From IMG/VR virus record IMGVR_UViG_3300037467_001397, positions 2,549 to 66,548 of that record: DNA of 64,000 nucleotides; one strand, written 5' to 3'. Below, piece by piece: positions 5,374-33,646 of this stretch (its first letter is position 1; each line of letters begins with the position of its first letter). The notes below the pieces were generated by a model that did no database searches, was not told where the DNA came from, and saw only the letters and a list, made by a program, of their open reading frames with translations. The position numbers and the translations under genes were made by a program. Source of the stretch: a virus.

Positions 5374-5985
5374 TCACAGCACAGGCTTGTCGGGGCCAGG
5401 CTCATCCGGGGCGATGACGGTCGCATCCTGCTTGATCGTCGACGCCGCGTCGGTGTGGTCGCCCGTGAGCTTGGTAGCGTCCACCGAGAACGCCTTGGGA
5501 AGGAAGCGTTCCATAAGCCATTTCCGGACTTCGACCCGTGCCTTCGAGCGCTCGACCGCCTCCCTATTGAGACGGGTCTCGGTCGCACCGCCGAACGTGC
5601 GCTTTTCCTCCCAATCGTTCGAGCTGTCGTCAATGATCCGCACGATGATGTCGGCTTGCGCGGTCGCCCAGGACGCCCTTGCGCGCGTTAGGTCCGACGA
5701 AAAAGACTCGTCGCGCTGCGCCCACTTCATCACCGTCGTGCGCTCCGGCATGTGCGGGCTGTCGCACACATCCATGAGCGTCTCGCCCGCACCGATGCGC
5801 TGTAGCAGCTCTGCGCGGACCTCTGGCGTCATCACCGACGGCCGACCGCCCGTGCTGGGCAGTGTCGCGGCGACGGCCCCCGTCGCTTCGGCATGCCGCG
5901 CCGCCTTGCTCTTGGTGGTCCGCTTCGCCTTGGGCGCGTCGCTGGCAACAGCCGGCGCCGTCGCCGGCCTCTTGGTGCCAGCCAT
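5374..5985 (-). CDS. terS: Terminase small subunit (Sf6 gp1-like)
   Basis: HTH (ELLQRIGAGETLMDVC..MPERTTVMKW), F..ARA..ADII.IID.S.ND, and AVERSKARVEVRKWLMER..PK, typical of this TerS family. Confidence 0.8.
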   Translation of the reverse strand: MAGTKRPATAPAVASDAPKAKRTTKSKAARHAEATGAVAATLPSTGGRPSVMTPEVRAELLQRIGAGETLMDVCDSPHMPERTTVMKWAQRDESFSSDLTRARASWATAQADIIVRIIDDSSNDWEEKRTFGGATETRLNREAVERSKARVEVRKWLMERFLPKAFSVDATKLTGDHTDAASTIKQDATVIAPDEPGPDKPVL

Positions 5986-6043: not shown

Positions 6044-6583
6044 TTCTGAGAATTCTAAGAGATTTCTAAGAAAATTCTGAACGTTCGTTCAGAAACAGGC
6101 CATTTACGGCAGCTACGGCAGTTCGTACGGCAGTTCGTTTTAGCCTGGTGCCGTACTGCCGACCCCTTGATCTTAAAGGGAAACGTGCCGCGAAACTCGG
6201 GACCAAAACCGGTACGGCACTTAGAACGCCTATTACCGCTCTACACGGGGAATAAATGCGGGCCCGCGCAACCGCGGCGTGCAGGCGCGCCCCTTTCCTA
6301 TTTTTCTCTCACCCGTGGAGTAAGAGAAAAACTGCCGTACTGCCGGAACCCCCGAGGGCGGGGCGGTGAACTCCTTGCGGATCAACGACTTGGCGGAACG
6401 GCACTAGCTCCGGACCAACTGCCGTACGAACTGCCGTAATGCAAAACGGTGCCGTAATCGCTTTTCCGTTGCGGTTCGCCGCACCACGCTCTTGACGGTG
6501 GAAAACCGCAACACCATTCTCTGTTGCGCAGCCTAGCTCGGCCCAACTGCCGCCGCTCGGCTTCCTAAGAGATTTCTAAGAAA
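6044..6583. repeat. Repeat-rich intergenic region (candidate packaging site or origin)
   Basis: Perfect 22-bp inverted repeat 6114-6135/6417-6438; nine copies of (C/G)TGCCGTA or its complement; 19-bp direct repeat CTAAGAGATTTCTAAGAAA at 6055-6073 and 6565-6583. Confidence 0.85.
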
Positions 6584-27880: not shown

Positions 27881-28199
27881 CGTCCGCATGCCGCTGATCA
27901 TCTGGGCGACCCGCGCTGAGTACGGCGAGCTGATCTCCGCCCTCGGTGCCGACGACAGCTTTCATGATGTCCTGCGCCGGGTCGTGCTGGCGCATCAGGA
28001 CCGCCTCGCCACGGTGACGTTCACGCTCACCCAGGACGACGCCGAGCGGATCACCGAGTCCCTCGACATCACCGACTTCGCCGAGATCACCGACCTCATC
28101 GAGCAGATGCGCGAGCAGCTCGAGTGGCTGCGGCGCAACCGGACCATCACCGCCACCCGCTTCGCGCTGCCGAATGTCGGCACGTTCTTCGGAGATTGA
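27870..28199 (+). CDS. Hypothetical protein
   Basis: 109 aa; GGAGG RBS; overlaps the upstream gene. Confidence 0.7.
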   Translation: MPGDVRMPLIIWATRAEYGELISALGADDSFHDVLRRVVLAHQDRLATVTFTLTQDDAERITESLDITDFAEITDLIEQMREQLEWLRRNRTITATRFALPNVGTFFGD

Positions 28200-28200
28200 G

Positions 28201-30366
28201 ATGGGAGCGCCGGCTATTCAGACGGCTGCGGCCGACGATCCTTGGGCCTTTCAGACTGACCTCGTTCATCAGATCGAGGCCGCCCTTGGCAACCATGCTT
28301 CTGTCCTCCTCCAGCTCCCCACGGGCGGCGGCAAGACCCACGTCGCCGCCGCGGTGATCAGGCGCTGGAATGCACGCAAGAAGCGGGTCTGGTTCGTCTG
28401 CCACACTCGCGAGCTGATCCAGCAGACCTGCGGCAAACTGAATGCGCTCCGCGTCTCTCACGGGGTCGTGTCGCCGGAGTATCTGCCAGCCTACGAGCGT
28501 CGCGTGCAGGTCTGCTCGGTAGACACCCTGCGCAGCCGGATCGGCAAGCTCGGCGACCTTCTGCAAGATCCCGATCTGATCGTGTGGGACGAGTGCCAGC
28601 ACGTCGCTGCGCCCTCTTGGGCCGCGATCAAGGAGCGATACGCCAAGGCCAGGCACCTGGGCCTCACCGCAACGCCAGAGCGCCTTGACGGCACGGGCCT
28701 CGGGCAGTGGTTCGACCATATGATCTGCGGGCCGACGACCCGCGATCTCATCGCGCGCGGTCGCCTGTCTCGCTACCGCCTCTTCGCGCCCACAATCCCG
28801 GATCTCCGGGGCGTGAAGACCCTGGCCGGCGATTACGCCGCAGCCGACCTGGATGAGCGGATGGGCGGCCCCGTGCTCGTCGGCGATGTGGTCGAGCACT
28901 ACCGCAAGCTGGCGCCCGGCGCGCGAGCGATCGTGTTCGCAGTCAGCGTGAAGCACTCCCAGGCCGTCGTGGAGCGGTTCCGGGGGGCCGGGATCCCGGC
29001 GGCCCATGTCGACGGAAGAACCTCAAAGGATGACCGTGACGCCGCGGTAGCGCGGCTCGCGTCCGGCGAGATCCGGATCTTGTCGAACGTGCGGGTGTTC
29101 ACGGAGGGGTTCGACCTTCCTGCGATCGATGCCGTGATCGTCCTGCGCCCCACGAAATCGCGGGCGCTGTTCCTTCAGATGATCGGCCGGGGCTTGCGCG
29201 GGGCGGAGGGTAAGGCTGCCACGATCGTCCTGGACCATGCGGGTGTGGTGTACGAGCACGGCCTGCCGGACGATGCCTATGAGTGGACGCTGGACGGACA
29301 GGCGGACCGCGGAGGCAGGCGGAATAAGCCGCTCGGCAGCCGCCTGCGGCGCTGCCCGGAGTGCAACGCGGTTCACGAACGGGCGGCAGAGTGCGTCGAG
29401 TGCGGACACGTCTATGCGCCCGGCGAACGGACGATCGACGAGGTCTATGGGGAACTGAGGGAAATCTGGGGACAGATACCGGACGGCTACGTGAATATGT
29501 CAGACTTCGAGAAGATGGTTGGCATTTCTGACAGGTCGTCTTACGGGCTCATTAAGCGTGGATTGCCCGCCGTAAAATGCTCCGGCATCACTATGATCGA
29601 TGTGTCGGAAGGAGTAAAATGGTTTTACAGCTACGCAGAAGACAGCCAGAGGCTGGCGGGACTTAGAAAGCGCCCAGGAGATCATATCGACTACCTCACT
29701 TCATTTGAGTTAGCGCAGCGGCTTGGCATTCCCGCCACCACGACCGCGCAATGGGTCCGCCGCGGCCTGCCGATCGGGGCAAACGGTTACATCCATTTCG
29801 ATAAAGCAAAGCAATGGATTGCTGAGAATACTAGGTTTTCGACGCACCTTGAGTGCGAAGGACTTGAGAAAATATCAGATTTTGCGAAACGAATACGCCG
29901 AACCGTAAGCGCGGTCTATCAATATGCCAAATCGGGCATGCCAACGTTGGACAATAGTTGGGTGCAAGTGGAAGAAGCACTTGATTGGTGCCGAGAAAGG
30001 GGATTGGGGCATACGCCGGACCTGCTCAGCATCACAGCATTTGCAGAGCACATTGGATGTTGTCAACAAACAGTAACAAAGTGGATGGGCGTGGGTCTGC
30101 CCTTCAAAGGCAACAAAAGAATACCGCTGGATGAGGCCCTCGCCTGGGTCTACTCGGACCCCGAGGCTAGACGCCTGGTGCCCCCGCGCGGCAGCGCCGC
30201 CGGGGGATACGAAAAGCAATATGCCTTCGCGAAGCGGGTCGGCAGTCCAGCCTCGACCGTGGCCCACTGGGTTTCGAAGGGTCTACCCGTTGCCGATAAC
30301 GGCTGGGTCCACGTCGAGAGAGGTCTCGCTTGGTACAAAGACTACAAATCCAAGCAGCGCAAGTAG
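28201..30366 (+). CDS. SF2 (DEAD/DEAH-like) helicase with Zn finger and five C-terminal winged-HTH repeats
   Basis: LPTGGGKT, IVWDECQH, GLTATP, VFTEGFDLP, QMIGRGLR; CPEC..CVECG; five K/R-G-L/M-P-centred repeats from about 29488. Confidence 0.9.
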   Translation: MGAPAIQTAAADDPWAFQTDLVHQIEAALGNHASVLLQLPTGGGKTHVAAAVIRRWNARKKRVWFVCHTRELIQQTCGKLNALRVSHGVVSPEYLPAYERRVQVCSVDTLRSRIGKLGDLLQDPDLIVWDECQHVAAPSWAAIKERYAKARHLGLTATPERLDGTGLGQWFDHMICGPTTRDLIARGRLSRYRLFAPTIPDLRGVKTLAGDYAAADLDERMGGPVLVGDVVEHYRKLAPGARAIVFAVSVKHSQAVVERFRGAGIPAAHVDGRTSKDDRDAAVARLASGEIRILSNVRVFTEGFDLPAIDAVIVLRPTKSRALFLQMIGRGLRGAEGKAATIVLDHAGVVYEHGLPDDAYEWTLDGQADRGGRRNKPLGSRLRRCPECNAVHERAAECVECGHVYAPGERTIDEVYGELREIWGQIPDGYVNMSDFEKMVGISDRSSYGLIKRGLPAVKCSGITMIDVSEGVKWFYSYAEDSQRLAGLRKRPGDHIDYLTSFELAQRLGIPATTTAQWVRRGLPIGANGYIHFDKAKQWIAENTRFSTHLECEGLEKISDFAKRIRRTVSAVYQYAKSGMPTLDNSWVQVEEALDWCRERGLGHTPDLLSITAFAEHIGCCQQTVTKWMGVGLPFKGNKRIPLDEALAWVYSDPEARRLVPPRGSAAGGYEKQYAFAKRVGSPASTVAHWVSKGLPVADNGWVHVERGLAWYKDYKSKQRK

Positions 30367-30412
30367 CGCGCCACAAGCCAATAAGCTGCCGTCCTCATTG
30401 GGAGATCACCTA

Positions 30413-31366
30413 GTGCCCCGCCATGTCTGGAAATCGACTGAGGTTGCGTGGCTGCGCGAGAACTACCTCAAGCTCGGCGCCAAGGCGTGCGCGGAGCACA
30501 TCGGCAACACGACCGCCGAGGCAGTGATCAAGACGGCGCGCCGCTACGGGATCGCGCAGCGCGCCGCCGACATCCAGGACCCCTCGTCCGAGTGGGCCGA
30601 TGCCGTGATCCGGCGGGCGCACGAGAGCGGCAGCCACAACCCGTGGCTTGACGCCTCACGCACCCTTGGCCGGACACGGCGATGGGTGCGGCGGCGCGCG
30701 AATAAGTTGGGGCTGCGGGCGCGGAGCGTCGCTCGGCGCCCCTGGTCGGCCGCCGAGGAGGCGTTCGTCGCACAGCGCCTGCACTGGCCGGCTCATCGCC
30801 TCGCCTCCGCGATGCGGGAGAATGGCTGGCAGCGGACGCAGTTCGCTGTCGAGCACCACCTCAAGCGCCGCGCACTGTCCGGGACCGACACAAGCTACAT
30901 GAGCGGCCTGGGCGCGGCAGCCGCGCTCGGCGTGAGCCTCACGACGATCCGGCGCTGGATCCACACCGGCCTGCTGATCGCCGAGCCGCGCGACCCAGAC
31001 TCCGCCTCGGCCGCCCAGACGGGGGCAGCCAAGGCGGTCTGCATCGCCGAGGAAGATCTCGCCGCCTTCATCCTGCTCAATCCCGAGAAGGTCAATTTCA
31101 CGAAGATCGAGGTGGCACAGACGAAGACTTGGTTCCTCGACCTAGTCAGTCGCTTTCCCAAGCCGCCGTCGCGGTCGGATTTGTACCAGCAGCGGCAGAT
31201 CGAGTCCCTGCACACATTCGAGCCCGACTTCGACGTCGAACGCATCGCGGCTGTGCTGAACACCGAGGAGTCGACCGTGCGCAGTGCTTTGGGCGAGCAG
31301 CGACGGCGGGACCGGGCTCGGGCACGCGAGCGCGCGATCCGTGCCGCTGGGCGGGAGGCGGCCTGA
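30413..31366 (+). CDS. Multi-HTH DNA-binding protein (Myb/AsnC-like repeats plus excisionase-like HTH)
   Basis: GTG after GGAG; W..TEVAWLRENY, WSAAEEAFV, AAAALGVSLTTIRRWIHTG. Confidence 0.7.
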   Translation: MPRHVWKSTEVAWLRENYLKLGAKACAEHIGNTTAEAVIKTARRYGIAQRAADIQDPSSEWADAVIRRAHESGSHNPWLDASRTLGRTRRWVRRRANKLGLRARSVARRPWSAAEEAFVAQRLHWPAHRLASAMRENGWQRTQFAVEHHLKRRALSGTDTSYMSGLGAAAALGVSLTTIRRWIHTGLLIAEPRDPDSASAAQTGAAKAVCIAEEDLAAFILLNPEKVNFTKIEVAQTKTWFLDLVSRFPKPPSRSDLYQQRQIESLHTFEPDFDVERIAAVLNTEESTVRSALGEQRRRDRARARERAIRAAGREAA

Positions 31367-31953
31367 TGCGGAACCGTCAGTTCACGAACCGCGACCTCGA
31401 GCGCATGGAGGCCATGGCGCTGCGCGGGTGCAACGCTCCGACGATCGCAGCAGCGATCGGCTGCAATCGGGAGTCCGTCCGCAAGTACGTCGGCGACATC
31501 ATGCGGAGGGTCCGGCAGCCCCGGACACGCTTCAATCGAGACCATATCCGCCGGCTCGCGCGCGAGCGCCACTCGACCAGGGAGATCGCGGCCAAGGTCG
31601 GGTGCAGCCCGGACACTGCCTACCGCATTGCCGGCGACATCATCCGGCGGAACGCGCAGGACAATCCCATGCGGGAGCAGATCCGCAAGCTGGCGCGGGA
31701 GGGGCGGTCGCGCGAGTACATCGCCACGGCGCTCGGGATCGCTAAGTCGACCGCCCACCGGCACGCGCGCGACATCTTCGACGCCAAGAAGGCGGCCCAG
31801 GAAGCGCGCAGGCTGCACGCCTACGAGCAGGCCGACGCCGACGGCAAGCGCGAACTCGCGGCCGCCTTTGGCTACGCGAACGTGCGGTCGATGTGGGTCA
31901 GCATGCACTTCTTGAGGCGACGGCTGAGCGCCGAGACCAAGCTCGCCGCCTGA
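31366..31953 (+). CDS. Tandem-HTH protein (3-4 HTH units)
   Basis: TIAAAIGCNRESVRKY; EIAAKVGCSPDTAYR; YIATALGIAKSTAHRH; ELAAAFGY. Confidence 0.8.
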   Translation: MRNRQFTNRDLERMEAMALRGCNAPTIAAAIGCNRESVRKYVGDIMRRVRQPRTRFNRDHIRRLARERHSTREIAAKVGCSPDTAYRIAGDIIRRNAQDNPMREQIRKLAREGRSREYIATALGIAKSTAHRHARDIFDAKKAAQEARRLHAYEQADADGKRELAAAFGYANVRSMWVSMHFLRRRLSAETKLAA

Positions 31954-31977
31954 TCCTGCTCCCTCGAAAGGTTACGC

Positions 31978-32340
31978 ATGAGCGTACGGTATAATTGGGG
32001 TCGAACGCCGCTCTCTCCGGAGGAGCGCGCCAGGGCGCGGCTCCTGTGCGGCGCGCGCGGGATGACGACGTACGAAGCCGCCGACGAACTCGGTCGCAGC
32101 CAAGCGGCGGTTGCCAATGCAGTGCGCGGCATTCGCAAACGCGCCGGGCGCGCGCCTGACTACGAGCGGGCCCGGCGGATCGTTGCCGCCTACGAGGCCG
32201 CGGTCTCTGGGCGCGGCGGCACTGTCGCAGGCTTGGTCGAGCGATGGGGCTACCGGAACGCCAGGAGCCTGTCCGGGTCGATCCCGCACTATCGGCGGAT
32301 GCTCGCGGCGCAGGCCGCCCAGACGCGGGAGGCCGCGTGA
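31978..32340 (+). CDS. HTH protein
   Basis: GMTTYEAADELGRSQAAVANAV. Confidence 0.7.
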   Translation: MSVRYNWGRTPLSPEERARARLLCGARGMTTYEAADELGRSQAAVANAVRGIRKRAGRAPDYERARRIVAAYEAAVSGRGGTVAGLVERWGYRNARSLSGSIPHYRRMLAAQAAQTREAA

Positions 32341-33524: not shown

Positions 33525-33600
33525 GATGCCGAAACGTTACCGCTTCGTAAAGTTGCGACGCCGTGAATGCATGGTGTCAAAATTTCTCAAAGCCCTGCCC

Positions 33601-33646
33601 TTGCGATATCGCAATTTCACAGTATCATGAAATTGCGATATCGCGA
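33601..33646. promoter_or_regulatory. Palindromic operator or centromere-like site upstream of parA
   Basis: Perfect 17-bp inverted repeat (33603-33619/33628-33644); each arm contains the palindrome GCGATATCGC. Confidence 0.6.

Follow-up and report, generated by a model that had tools for sequence, protein, structure and literature searches.

The window, that is the whole stretch of 64,000 nucleotides that was analyzed, originates from a soil phage and harbors an optional gene encoding an SF2 helicase core, a zinc ribbon and five tandem winged helix-turn-helix (wHTH) repeats. In the ORF list the gene appears as a single ORF at 28174-30366 (plus strand) of 730 amino acids, with an in-frame ATG at 28174 upstream of 28201. 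The true start is probably the ATG at 28201, because it is located one base past the upstream stop and the same start is used in the sister contig L002. Residue numbers are nevertheless counted from the ATG at 28174. The locus comprises the following features:

28200..30412, plus strand: whole optional gene cassette, between g27870 (stop 28199) and an HTH-rich gene (GTG 30413)
28201..30366, plus strand: helicase-wHTH array gene, 721 amino acids from ATG 28201
28237..29259, plus strand: SF2 ATPase/helicase core (residues 22-362), E. coli RadD being the nearest relative with a solved structure
29353..29403, plus strand: CxxC-x9-CxxC zinc ribbon (Cys 394, 397, 407, 410), aligned to the RadD zinc finger
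29428..29463, plus strand: conserved beta-hairpin linker (ERTIDEVYGELRE), left breakpoint of the swapped array
29464..30299, plus strand: array cassette, without detectable DNA similarity to sister contig L002; GC3 0.61
29488..29634, plus strand: wHTH repeat 1, residues 439-487, with a 3-residue insertion in the wing
29692..29829, plus strand: wHTH repeat 2, residues 507-552, Pfam HTH_17 past its cut-off
29866..29997, plus strand: wHTH repeat 3, residues 565-608, from a repeat-seeded HMM
30025..30156, plus strand: wHTH repeat 4, residues 618-661, from a repeat-seeded HMM
30208..30345, plus strand: wHTH repeat 5, residues 679-724, then a basic tail; modelled alone, pLDDT 94

The succession of helicase core, zinc finger and five repeats of 45-50 amino acids had been proposed in a sequence-only reading of this DNA and was confirmed within one open gene (28201-30366, plus strand). 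That reading had also considered that a sequencing frameshift might have joined two separate genes. The frame is open, however, and the fusion recurs in isolates, in phage RHph_X2_25 and in metagenomes, which rules out a frameshift or assembly artefact and indicates that the fusion is genuine and conserved.

Helicase core and zinc ribbon

The core consists of two RecA-like domains with intact motifs I (PTGGGKT), II (DECQH, DExH type), III (TATP) and VI (QMIGRGLR), and thus belongs to the SF2 helicases/translocases. Pfam ResIII (4.7e-21) and Helicase_C (1.8e-16) matched past their cut-offs, and DEAD was also matched (residues 27-342). Residues K54, D139, E140, H143, T167, R339 and R342 are invariant among 45 homologues, C394, C397 and C410 of the zinc ribbon are invariant in the homologue alignment, and the core was modelled with a pLDDT above 90.

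E. coli RadD (YejH, 6jde), an SF2 helicase of DNA repair and a recombination accessory protein, likewise has RecA-like domains 1 and 2 with the complete set of motifs and, behind them, a CxxC...CxxC zinc finger. A phmmer comparison with 6jde aligned residues 43-363 (E 1.2e-25), and the zinc finger was aligned as well. The protein is not a RadD orthologue, as the NCBIfam equivalog model for RadD, NF053632, reached 130 bits against a cut-off of 720 and only residues 40-362 align; NCBIfam naming gave generic helicase matches only. In contrast to RadD, the portion past the zinc finger is made up of five wHTH repeats, and the gene is carried by a phage and is optional. Core and zinc ribbon are shared with the PHROG 16 phage DNA helicases (E 7.8e-99), such as those of Xanthomonas FoX phages, Ralstonia phiRSP and Pseudomonas PPpW-3, with 38-42% identity over residues 26-431 in tblastn, but the match to these phage records stops around query residues 411-447. 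No wHTH repeat is present in homologues with a length of about 457 amino acids.

Sequence and fold of the wHTH repeats

The HMM located the repeat starts at 29488, 29692, 29866, 30025 and 30208, within 3 nt of those in the sequence-only reading. A profile built from 80 homologue repeats recovered the same five units in the phage genome (E 1.6e-23 to 4.5e-15), PHROG 57 (terminase small subunit, TerS) matched the protein in four stretches (E 1e-24), and HTH_17 scored 28-32 bits on repeat 2 against a cut-off of 27. The consensus has the form F-A-x-R-x-G ... W-x-x-x-G-L/M-P ... I/V ... A/G-L-x-W, and the consensus stated in the sequence-only reading agrees with the residue frequencies per column among 420 repeats, in which F reaches 93%, G 92%, P 93% and W 97%. 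The strong conservation of these scaffold residues in every repeat argues that the repeats are under selection. Only repeat 5 is well preserved in the sister protein P0007, where its identity is about 70%.

The AF2 model of repeat 5 alone (pLDDT 94) shows the topology beta1, helix 1, turn, recognition helix, beta-hairpin wing and helix 3. Together with the structural matches and HTH_17, this model assigns the repeats to the Nu1/MerR/Xis-type winged HTH fold. The earlier comparison with the winged HTH of gpNu1 and with MerR/Xis-like domains is therefore borne out by PHROG 57, the model and the structural matches, and the possibility that the repeats do not fold as winged HTH finds no support in the single-repeat model. 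The full-length model has a mean pLDDT of 86.5, with mostly 82-95 in the five repeat blocks and 53-77 in the linkers. The best structural matches were DNA-binding domains of TerS proteins (6hn7_A with Z 8.2 and an rmsd of 1.6 across 53 residues; 7lxs with Z 7.9), a VIA Z of about 8 being a level that a common arrangement may also reach. Further TerS matches were 7lw0 and 7lwr (TM 0.72) and gpNu1 (1j9i, TM 0.75), and next came Xis, SoxR, RdfS, TipAL, the MerR class and BldC, several of them solved on DNA. Foldseek E-values were weak (at least 0.06) due to the small size of the domain. A MerR-like fold can make protein contacts as well, and CbpM (3ucs) and DafA (9dvi) were also among the structural matches. 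Look-alikes of the array in the ESM Atlas were generic HTH_17 clusters only (scores 0.75, TM <0.5) and are regarded as leads only.

The arrays are basic, with a median pI of 9.86 and a pI above 8 in 99% of 93 arrays; repeat 3 of the present protein is acidic to neutral (pI 6.5). Conserved Arg/Lys residues occur in helix 1 as well as where the recognition helix ends. Based on the basic pI and these conserved residues, the array is predicted to bind dsDNA. Positions 19, 20, 23 and 24 of the recognition helix are highly variable, as are other surface positions.

Exchange of the array among homologues

One to six repeats were present in 103 of 122 homologues, and about nine in one (P0124). These homologues are annotated solely as "DEAD/DEAH helicase" or "RadD". 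The architecture is common in alphaproteobacterial (pro)phages and hence not unique. The sequence-only reading, to which no description of it was known, is consistent with the open-access literature searched, where neither a relevant paper on a helicase with tandem wHTH repeats nor an experiment on a member was found, although a prior description may exist.

P0001 and P0007 share about 90% identity up to residue 429 and only about 30% beyond. At the DNA level, homology to L002 ends at 29463, with the linker ERTIDEVYGELRE as the final segment shared with the sister phage, and restarts at 30300. Such an abrupt decrease at a fixed breakpoint, where DNA homology is also lost, points to replacement and not to drift. 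The missing DNA homology to the sister array and the low GC3 of the array of this phage (0.61, compared to 0.82 for its core) suggest that the array was acquired. In agreement with what had been noticed before, the GC content amounts to 48-56% across 29400-30150 compared to 63-71% in the helicase half. In 17 homologue pairs with cores at least 90% identical, the median identity of the arrays was 34.5%, which equals background, and repeat counts were unequal in most of these pairs. The array thus behaves as a swappable cassette on a near-constant motor, which was newly found here. Since relatives keep the motor almost unchanged and swap the tail wholesale, the site of action of the motor is probably determined by the tail. 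A search for TerS homologues in L001, L003-L005 and L008, which are further phages with such arrays, found none, indicating that these phages are unrelated outside the helicase.

Genomic context of the optional gene

Two complete sister phages with syntenic flanking genes lack the gene. In the complete sister phage G006 the slot is empty and the flanking genes, which are 95% and 92% identical, directly adjoin each other across a spacer of 4 nt, and another complete sister phage harbors different genes in the same slot. This absence is at odds with a core replicon gene, as which an iteron initiator helicase would be expected to occur. A D5-type primase/SF3 helicase is present in the window phage and in the compared sister phages, and the array helicase does not count among the core replication genes of the phage group.

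In the window phage the gene is located in the early DNA-metabolism region. Early-gene contexts were also observed for homologues, which adjoin genes for SSB, YqaJ or a RecD-like helicase or lie between repressor and integrase; a RecE-like exonuclease is also among the neighbours. The copy in a Mesorhizobium prophage is part of a recombination module beside SSB, and in RHph_X2_25 a small HNH gene overlaps the helicase stop codon.

Proposed function

With moderate confidence, the protein is interpreted as an accessory SF2 motor tethered by a retargetable multi-site DNA reader, in which the array represents the specificity module. The gene product would be an accessory, early-expressed phage DNA motor, composed of a RadD-type SF2 ATPase whose catalytic motifs are intact, of a zinc ribbon and, at the C-terminus, of a string of five independently folded Nu1/MerR/Xis-type winged-HTH domains. 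This array would act as a multi-site dsDNA reader that contacts about one DNA turn per domain, for which the single-domain relatives gpNu1 (at cosB), Xis, RdfS and BldC, arranged head-to-tail on direct repeats, may serve as model. With its repeat units covalently joined, the array would serve to load the motor at particular DNA sites or to tether it there. The homologue comparison shows that the array is replaced as a cassette and differs in copy number on a nearly constant motor.

The array is presumed to be sequence-specific, and the process that it might serve can be ranked only by plausibility. Loading at specific sites of the element's own DNA, in the service of replication or recombination, is tentatively placed first, at less than an even chance. 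Conflict between mobile elements and a non-specific DNA tether for a recombination/repair motor are less probable and equally so, and something else is the least likely of the four. A doubtful extension is that the repeats constitute a modular DNA-reading code, in which each repeat would correspond to a short sub-site and retargeting would occur by shuffling, duplicating or swapping repeats. Such a code would be comparable to TALE repeats or to the way in which type I restriction enzymes exchange their TRDs, and might help to discriminate between replicons or packaging sites or be used in warfare among related phages.

Alternatively, the TerS-like array could read sites such as packaging or regulatory repeats on the DNA of a competing phage, a satellite or the host, whereupon the motor would strip proteins, remodel DNA or pass the DNA to a nuclease, with an arms race diversifying the arrays. 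Hypervariable arrays on near-identical motors, a variable slot, vacant in one sister phage and occupied by other genes in another, the prophage position between repressor and integrase, where accessory genes gather, and packaging-site readers as nearest fold relatives are all in line with such a conflict module. The motor is also related to type I/IV restriction helicases (PADLOC mREase_IV 2e-33; 7clg 1.4e-21), but the defence-family matches are limited to generic helicase similarity: PADLOC gave helicase-domain matches only (mREase_IV, PbeA, type I REase), and no partner genes. The HNH gene overlapping the helicase stop in RHph_X2_25 also counts in favour of this reading, whereas the lack of a nuclease or effector domain in the protein or consistently among its neighbours, and the location of the Mesorhizobium copy in a recombination module, count against it. 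Overall, a conflict module is considered unlikely.

Another reading, also rather unlikely, is that the array anchors a RadD-like motor of recombination or fork remodelling to DNA without sequence specificity, or serves this motor as a tail for protein interactions, and thereby raises its local concentration or processivity. The variability of the arrays would then reflect weak constraint instead of retargeting, which is difficult to reconcile with the conserved scaffold residues, with the abrupt decrease in identity and loss of DNA homology at a fixed breakpoint, and with sequence-specific readers as closest fold relatives. The proposal draws its strength from the RadD-like motor, from SSB, YqaJ, a RecD-like helicase and a RecE-like exonuclease as neighbours, from the uniformly basic arrays and from a repeat number that varies freely from 1 to 9.

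Iterons in the window

The sequence-only reading had suggested that the helicase could load at a repeat array such as the one at 6105-6456, to which two features are relevant:

5374-5985: Sf6-type terS, encoding the phage's own TerS
6105-6456: TACGGCAG cluster, immediately upstream of terS

Eight exact copies of TACGGCAG are present in the window compared to 1.4 expected, six of them within 6105-6438, and degenerate copies spaced 9-12 bp also occur. The cluster is directly upstream of terS and 22 kb from the helicase. G006 harbors about 15 copies of the same motif, TACGGCA(C/G), upstream of its terS without helicase or array, and G005, which also lacks the helicase gene, carries a different iteron. 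As a helicase-less sister phage keeps the same iterons upstream of terS, loading of the helicase at 6105-6456 is unsupported; of the suggested acquired multi-site reader, the acquisition is supported whereas the link to these repeats is not. Repeat and k-mer cluster scans detected no iteron clusters in the region from 25.6 to 34.3 kb or in the array-coding DNA, and nothing shared or consistent in L001-L005 and L008; cognate repeats of the kind known from iteron-dependent initiators (P4 alpha, UL9, SaPI Rep type) were not found in these scans. The 63-bp periodic GCGACGGAAGC matches at 1241-1692 are coding repeats that are unrelated to the helicase gene.

An origin- or iteron-binding initiator helicase whose five wHTH domains load on the TACGGCAG array, by analogy to P4 alpha, herpesvirus UL9 and SaPI Rep, is very improbable: the cluster is real, the gene is located in the early region and a conserved motor with a variable DNA-binding end follows the pattern of SaPI Rep and lambda O, but the cluster adjoins terS far from the helicase, the sister phages have the same or another iteron without the gene, a D5-type primase/SF3 helicase is present in all these phages, and no iterons occur inside or beside the gene.

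Significance

It is usually DNA structure or a partner protein that brings a helicase to its substrate. If the interpretation as a retargetable reader is true, a motor equipped with a long array of sequence readers that can be exchanged rapidly would represent an unusual solution for sending a helicase to selected sites, and would constitute a specificity module in alphaproteobacterial phages that is hidden by the annotation "DEAD/DEAH box helicase". Should every repeat recognize a defined sub-site, the arrays, with 50-amino-acid units that are modelled as well folded and short linkers between them, would provide a compact natural scaffold for multi-site DNA recognition. The tempting link to the terS-proximal iterons has been removed and the gene has been shown to be an optional cassette, a status that leaves fewer experiments worth doing.

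Comparison with known systems

UL9, P4 alpha and SaPI Rep combine a helicase motor with a C-terminal site-specific DNA-binding part, and in SaPI Rep the motor is conserved while the end that confers specificity varies. They are essential initiators with iterons beside or inside the gene; the lambda ori is located inside gene O. The protein described here also possesses a motor and a C-terminal part, which is predicted to bind DNA. In contrast to these initiators, its gene is dispensable in the phage group, no cognate iterons were found in the scans, another replicative helicase-primase is present, and the C-terminal part is a repeat array instead of a single domain.

Lambda gpNu1 and the small terminases of cos phages (1j9i, 6hn7, 7lw0, 7lxs, 7lwr) share the beta-helix-turn-helix-wing-helix fold and the signature of the repeats, with TM 0.72-0.78, rmsd 1.3-1.6 and 20-26% identity. 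The solved small terminases of this type contain one N-terminal copy of the domain (residues 6-63 of the 132 residues of 6hn7_A were matched), followed by a non-HTH part with roles in oligomerisation and TerL binding, whereas here five tandem copies are located behind a helicase without other TerS parts. The protein does not resemble a functional TerS, as only positions 15-68 of PHROG 57, the DNA-binding domain, are matched, four times, the gene is located in the early region, and the phage's own Sf6-type TerS is unrelated to the repeats.

BldC, RdfS and Xis belong to the same fold class (6amk Z 6.0, 8dgl Z 6.1, 4j2n Z 7.1) and provide a mechanistic precedent for several such domains on successive sites of one DNA. 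Single MerR-like/wHTH domains of BldC form head-to-tail multimers on direct repeats (PMC5859096), and head-to-tail multimers on direct repeats are also formed by RdfS (PMC11963761). These proteins are separate small polypeptides that assemble cooperatively, whereas in the phage protein the domains are covalently joined by linkers of 10-20 residues and a motor is attached.

Domain structure of the helicase-array protein

The window covers 64 kb of a complete IMG/VR phage genome of 71,155 bp with direct terminal repeats. It encodes tail sheath, baseplate and tail genes, an Sf6-type small terminase (TerS), a D5-type primase/SF3 helicase, a RecE-like exonuclease, an HNH endonuclease, a dCMP deaminase, ArdA and a ParA-type partition gene. 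A perfect 17-bp inverted repeat with GCGATATCGC (33581-33644), probably a partition or operator site, lies upstream of the ParA/RHH pair. On the minus strand, ORF 787-1770 contains approximately eight copies of GCGACGGAAGC with a 63-bp period (1241-1692), which implies tandem 21-aa repeats in the encoded protein.

The helicase-array gene is a single ORF on the plus strand (28174-30366). Its start is probably ATG 28201, 1 base past the upstream stop codon; L002, a syntenic sister-phage contig, uses the same start. The product, P0001, is an SF2 helicase bearing a putative accessory DNA-binding module.

Features of P0001 (residues numbered from nt 28174)
Residues 22-362, plus strand: SF2 core with Pfam ResIII, Helicase_C and DEAD matches
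Cys 394, 397, 407 and 410, plus strand: zinc ribbon CxxC-x9-CxxC, aligning to the RadD zinc finger
Residues 419-430, plus strand: conserved beta-hairpin linker after the zinc ribbon
Residues 439-487, from nt 29488, plus strand: winged-HTH (wHTH) repeat 1
Residues 507-552, from nt 29692, plus strand: wHTH repeat 2
Residues 565-608, from nt 29866, plus strand: wHTH repeat 3
Residues 618-661, from nt 30025, plus strand: wHTH repeat 4
Residues 679-724, from nt 30208, plus strand: wHTH repeat 5

The core matched PHROG 16 "DNA helicase" (E 7.8e-99), and its motif residues are invariant in the 45 homologues compared. E. coli RadD (6jde) is the best solved relative (E 1.2e-25). The protein is not itself a RadD orthologue, as it scores 130 bits where the cut-off is 720.

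The five repeat starts proposed in the sequence-only reading agree with the mapped ones to within 3 nt. The repeat signal is far beyond chance, because a profile of 80 homologous repeats recovered all five units (E 1.6e-23 to 4.5e-15) and PHROG 57 (terminase small subunit) matched the protein four times (E 1e-24 overall). Repeat 5, modeled with the alignment of 80 repeats as input (pLDDT 94), shows the topology strand, helix, turn, helix, beta-hairpin, helix. In Foldseek, the small-terminase DNA-binding domains 7lw0, 7lxs and 7lwr occupied ranks 1-3 (TM 0.67-0.72; rmsd 1.3-1.5 for 7lw0 and 7lwr, 2.7 for 7lxs), followed by RacA on DNA, gpNu1 (1j9i, TM 0.75), the cos-phage TerS 6hn7/6hlk (TM 0.76-0.78) and MerR regulators, with E-values that are weak (at least 0.06), as expected at 56 residues. 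In an independent VIA search of 48,161 chains, 6hn7_A ranked first (Z 8.2, rmsd 1.6 over 53 residues at 23% identity) and was followed by 7lxs (Z 7.9) and then by Pukovnik Xis, SoxR, RdfS, TipAL and BldC. The full-length model (pLDDT 86.5, pTM 0.61) resembles beads on a string, with five confident domains and low-confidence linkers. Together, these models and matches show that the winged-HTH assignment made from the sequence holds.

Distribution of the fusion

The fusion is genuine and conserved. One to six repeats (mode 4-5) were present in 103 of the 122 homologues compared; homologues of ~457 aa have none, and P0124 (918 aa) has approximately nine. Named sources are Rhizobium phage RHph_X2_25, Methylobacterium, Mesorhizobium, Bosea, Ochrobactrum, Agrobacterium, Shinella, Rhizobium, Ahrensia and Rhodopila, to which a species-genome scan added a Magnetococcus MAG. 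All carriers are annotated only as helicase or RadD, and no description of the architecture was found in the open-access literature searched. The architecture is common yet unannotated in alphaproteobacterial (pro)phages. The array family itself is of modest size, as only 63 representatives matched at E <=0.001 in a library clustered at 50% identity.

Long wHTH arrays also exist as stand-alone proteins, as seen in P0140, a 1015-aa metagenomic protein from outside the window with many tandem MerR-like HTH repeats and no helicase, and in 500-640-aa ESM Atlas proteins built of HTH_17 arrays. Past the last repeat, many array-bearing homologues (P0004, P0123, P0124, P0127) share a conserved tail, W-V-R-D-N-T-x-I-E-I-P-P-x-A-W-P, which may be a partner-binding peptide. 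P0001 and P0007, its homologue encoded on L002, lack this tail and end in a basic K/R tail.

Exchange of the array

P0007 is ~90% identical to P0001 up to residue 429, then ~30%, and ~70% in the last repeat; it contains one repeat more. At the DNA level, 82% homology between L002 and the window stops at 29463 and restarts at 30300. In both phages GC3 falls from 0.82 (core) to 0.61 (array), which explains why the repeat segment had appeared less GC-rich, and a smaller drop occurs in four other lineages. This drop argues for import of the array. Across 17 homologue pairs whose cores share at least 90% identity, the median best-HSP identity of the arrays was 34.5% (29-36% in 14 pairs), and repeat number was unequal in most. 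These values are close to the repeat background (18-24% between repeats within P0001; 26% mean column identity across 80 repeats). Replacement of the array on a conserved core is a general pattern, and the cassette-like hypervariability of the array is an unexpected property. In certain arrays, for example in P0002, adjacent repeats are near-identical; arrays thus expand by tandem duplication as well.

Between 27660 and 29463, conservation relative to L002 is higher in the core (82% nt, ~89% aa) than in the flanking genes (~60-63% aa); the core, too, may have undergone recent exchange.

Gene neighborhood

Two complete sister phages were located via TerS, G005 (79% identity) and G006 (53%). Both lack helicase core and array, and synteny flanking the slot is intact. 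In G006, homologues of the gene directly upstream of the helicase (95%) and of the HTH-rich gene from 30413 (92%) lie 4 nt apart, and in G005 two unrelated genes fill the slot. As the slot is empty in G006, occupied by other genes in G005 and filled in L002 by the helicase with a different array, the helicase gene is optional and located in a variable slot among early genes. The D5-type primase-helicase is retained in all these phages. The two genes in the G005 slot (L096:7994-9680) encode 187 aa and 165 aa, and the slot also includes oddly repetitive stretches with recurrent ...ATQRNA.../...PPFGGGW... reading frames.

Three consecutive HTH-rich genes directly follow the helicase (30413-32340), the first with one weak repeat-profile match (E 7.5e-4). 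Genes 1 and 2 have homologues in G005, G006 and L002, and for gene 3 one was found in G006 only; the three genes are therefore not tied to the helicase cassette.

The helicase gene of a Mesorhizobium prophage comes after SSB, and its module also encodes a YqaJ exonuclease and a RecD-like helicase. An Ochrobactrum prophage and RHph_X2_25 carry the helicase gene in an operon, between repressor and integrase. The stop codon of the RHph_X2_25 helicase is overlapped by a small HNH gene, and the main replication module of this phage is elsewhere. Another viral contig encodes a Toprim/DnaB-type primase-helicase nearby. No conserved partner gene was found across the loci examined.

Proposed function of the array

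With a median pI of 9.86, and values above 8 in 99% of 93 arrays, the arrays are basic. Helix 1 and the end of the recognition helix carry conserved Arg/Lys residues, F, G, P and W of the scaffold are strongly conserved (92-97%), and recognition-helix positions are variable. This combination is consistent with DNA reading. In the best-supported reading, in which we place moderate confidence, the array would be an exchangeable reader of multiple DNA sites, by which an accessory RadD-type motor is tethered or loaded. It may serve replication or recombination, acting on the DNA of the element itself. Conflict between mobile elements is another candidate, which would fit the hypervariable array, the variable slot and the restriction-type similarity of the motor. 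The array could also be a non-specific tether.

It had been proposed that the array could load the helicase at TACGGCAG repeats. The cluster of this motif is real: the window contains eight exact copies (1.4 expected), six of which fall between 6105 and 6438, and degenerate copies as well. The cluster is arranged as two inverted sets and is located directly upstream of terS. Neither the helicase gene nor its surroundings, in the window or six related loci, yielded another set of iterons. G006 carries ~15 copies of the same motif, TACGGCA(C/G), upstream of terS (L088:2480-2930) without the helicase, which speaks directly against these repeats being the dedicated partner of the array. Iteron loading is improbable. 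The repeats reported in the sequence-only reading are confirmed and its interpretation is supported in part: the fold holds, and the proposed loading site is not supported.

The position of the cluster (window 6044-6583) is conserved in the sister phages; at this site G005 carries another repeat, CGTAACAGAAAAA / TTTCTGTTACG (L087:2600-2930). As the motif is kept in G006 and differs in G005, the type of iteron is not predicted by how similar the TerS proteins are overall. In the window the region is bracketed by a 19-bp CTAAGAGATTTCTAAGAAA element, of which G006 has a related version.

A multi-site reader has parallels in the single-domain relatives BldC (PMC5859096) and RdfS (PMC11963761), which line up head-to-tail on direct repeats. 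In the window protein, by contrast, the units are covalently joined, and the array would represent a pre-assembled counterpart of this line-up.
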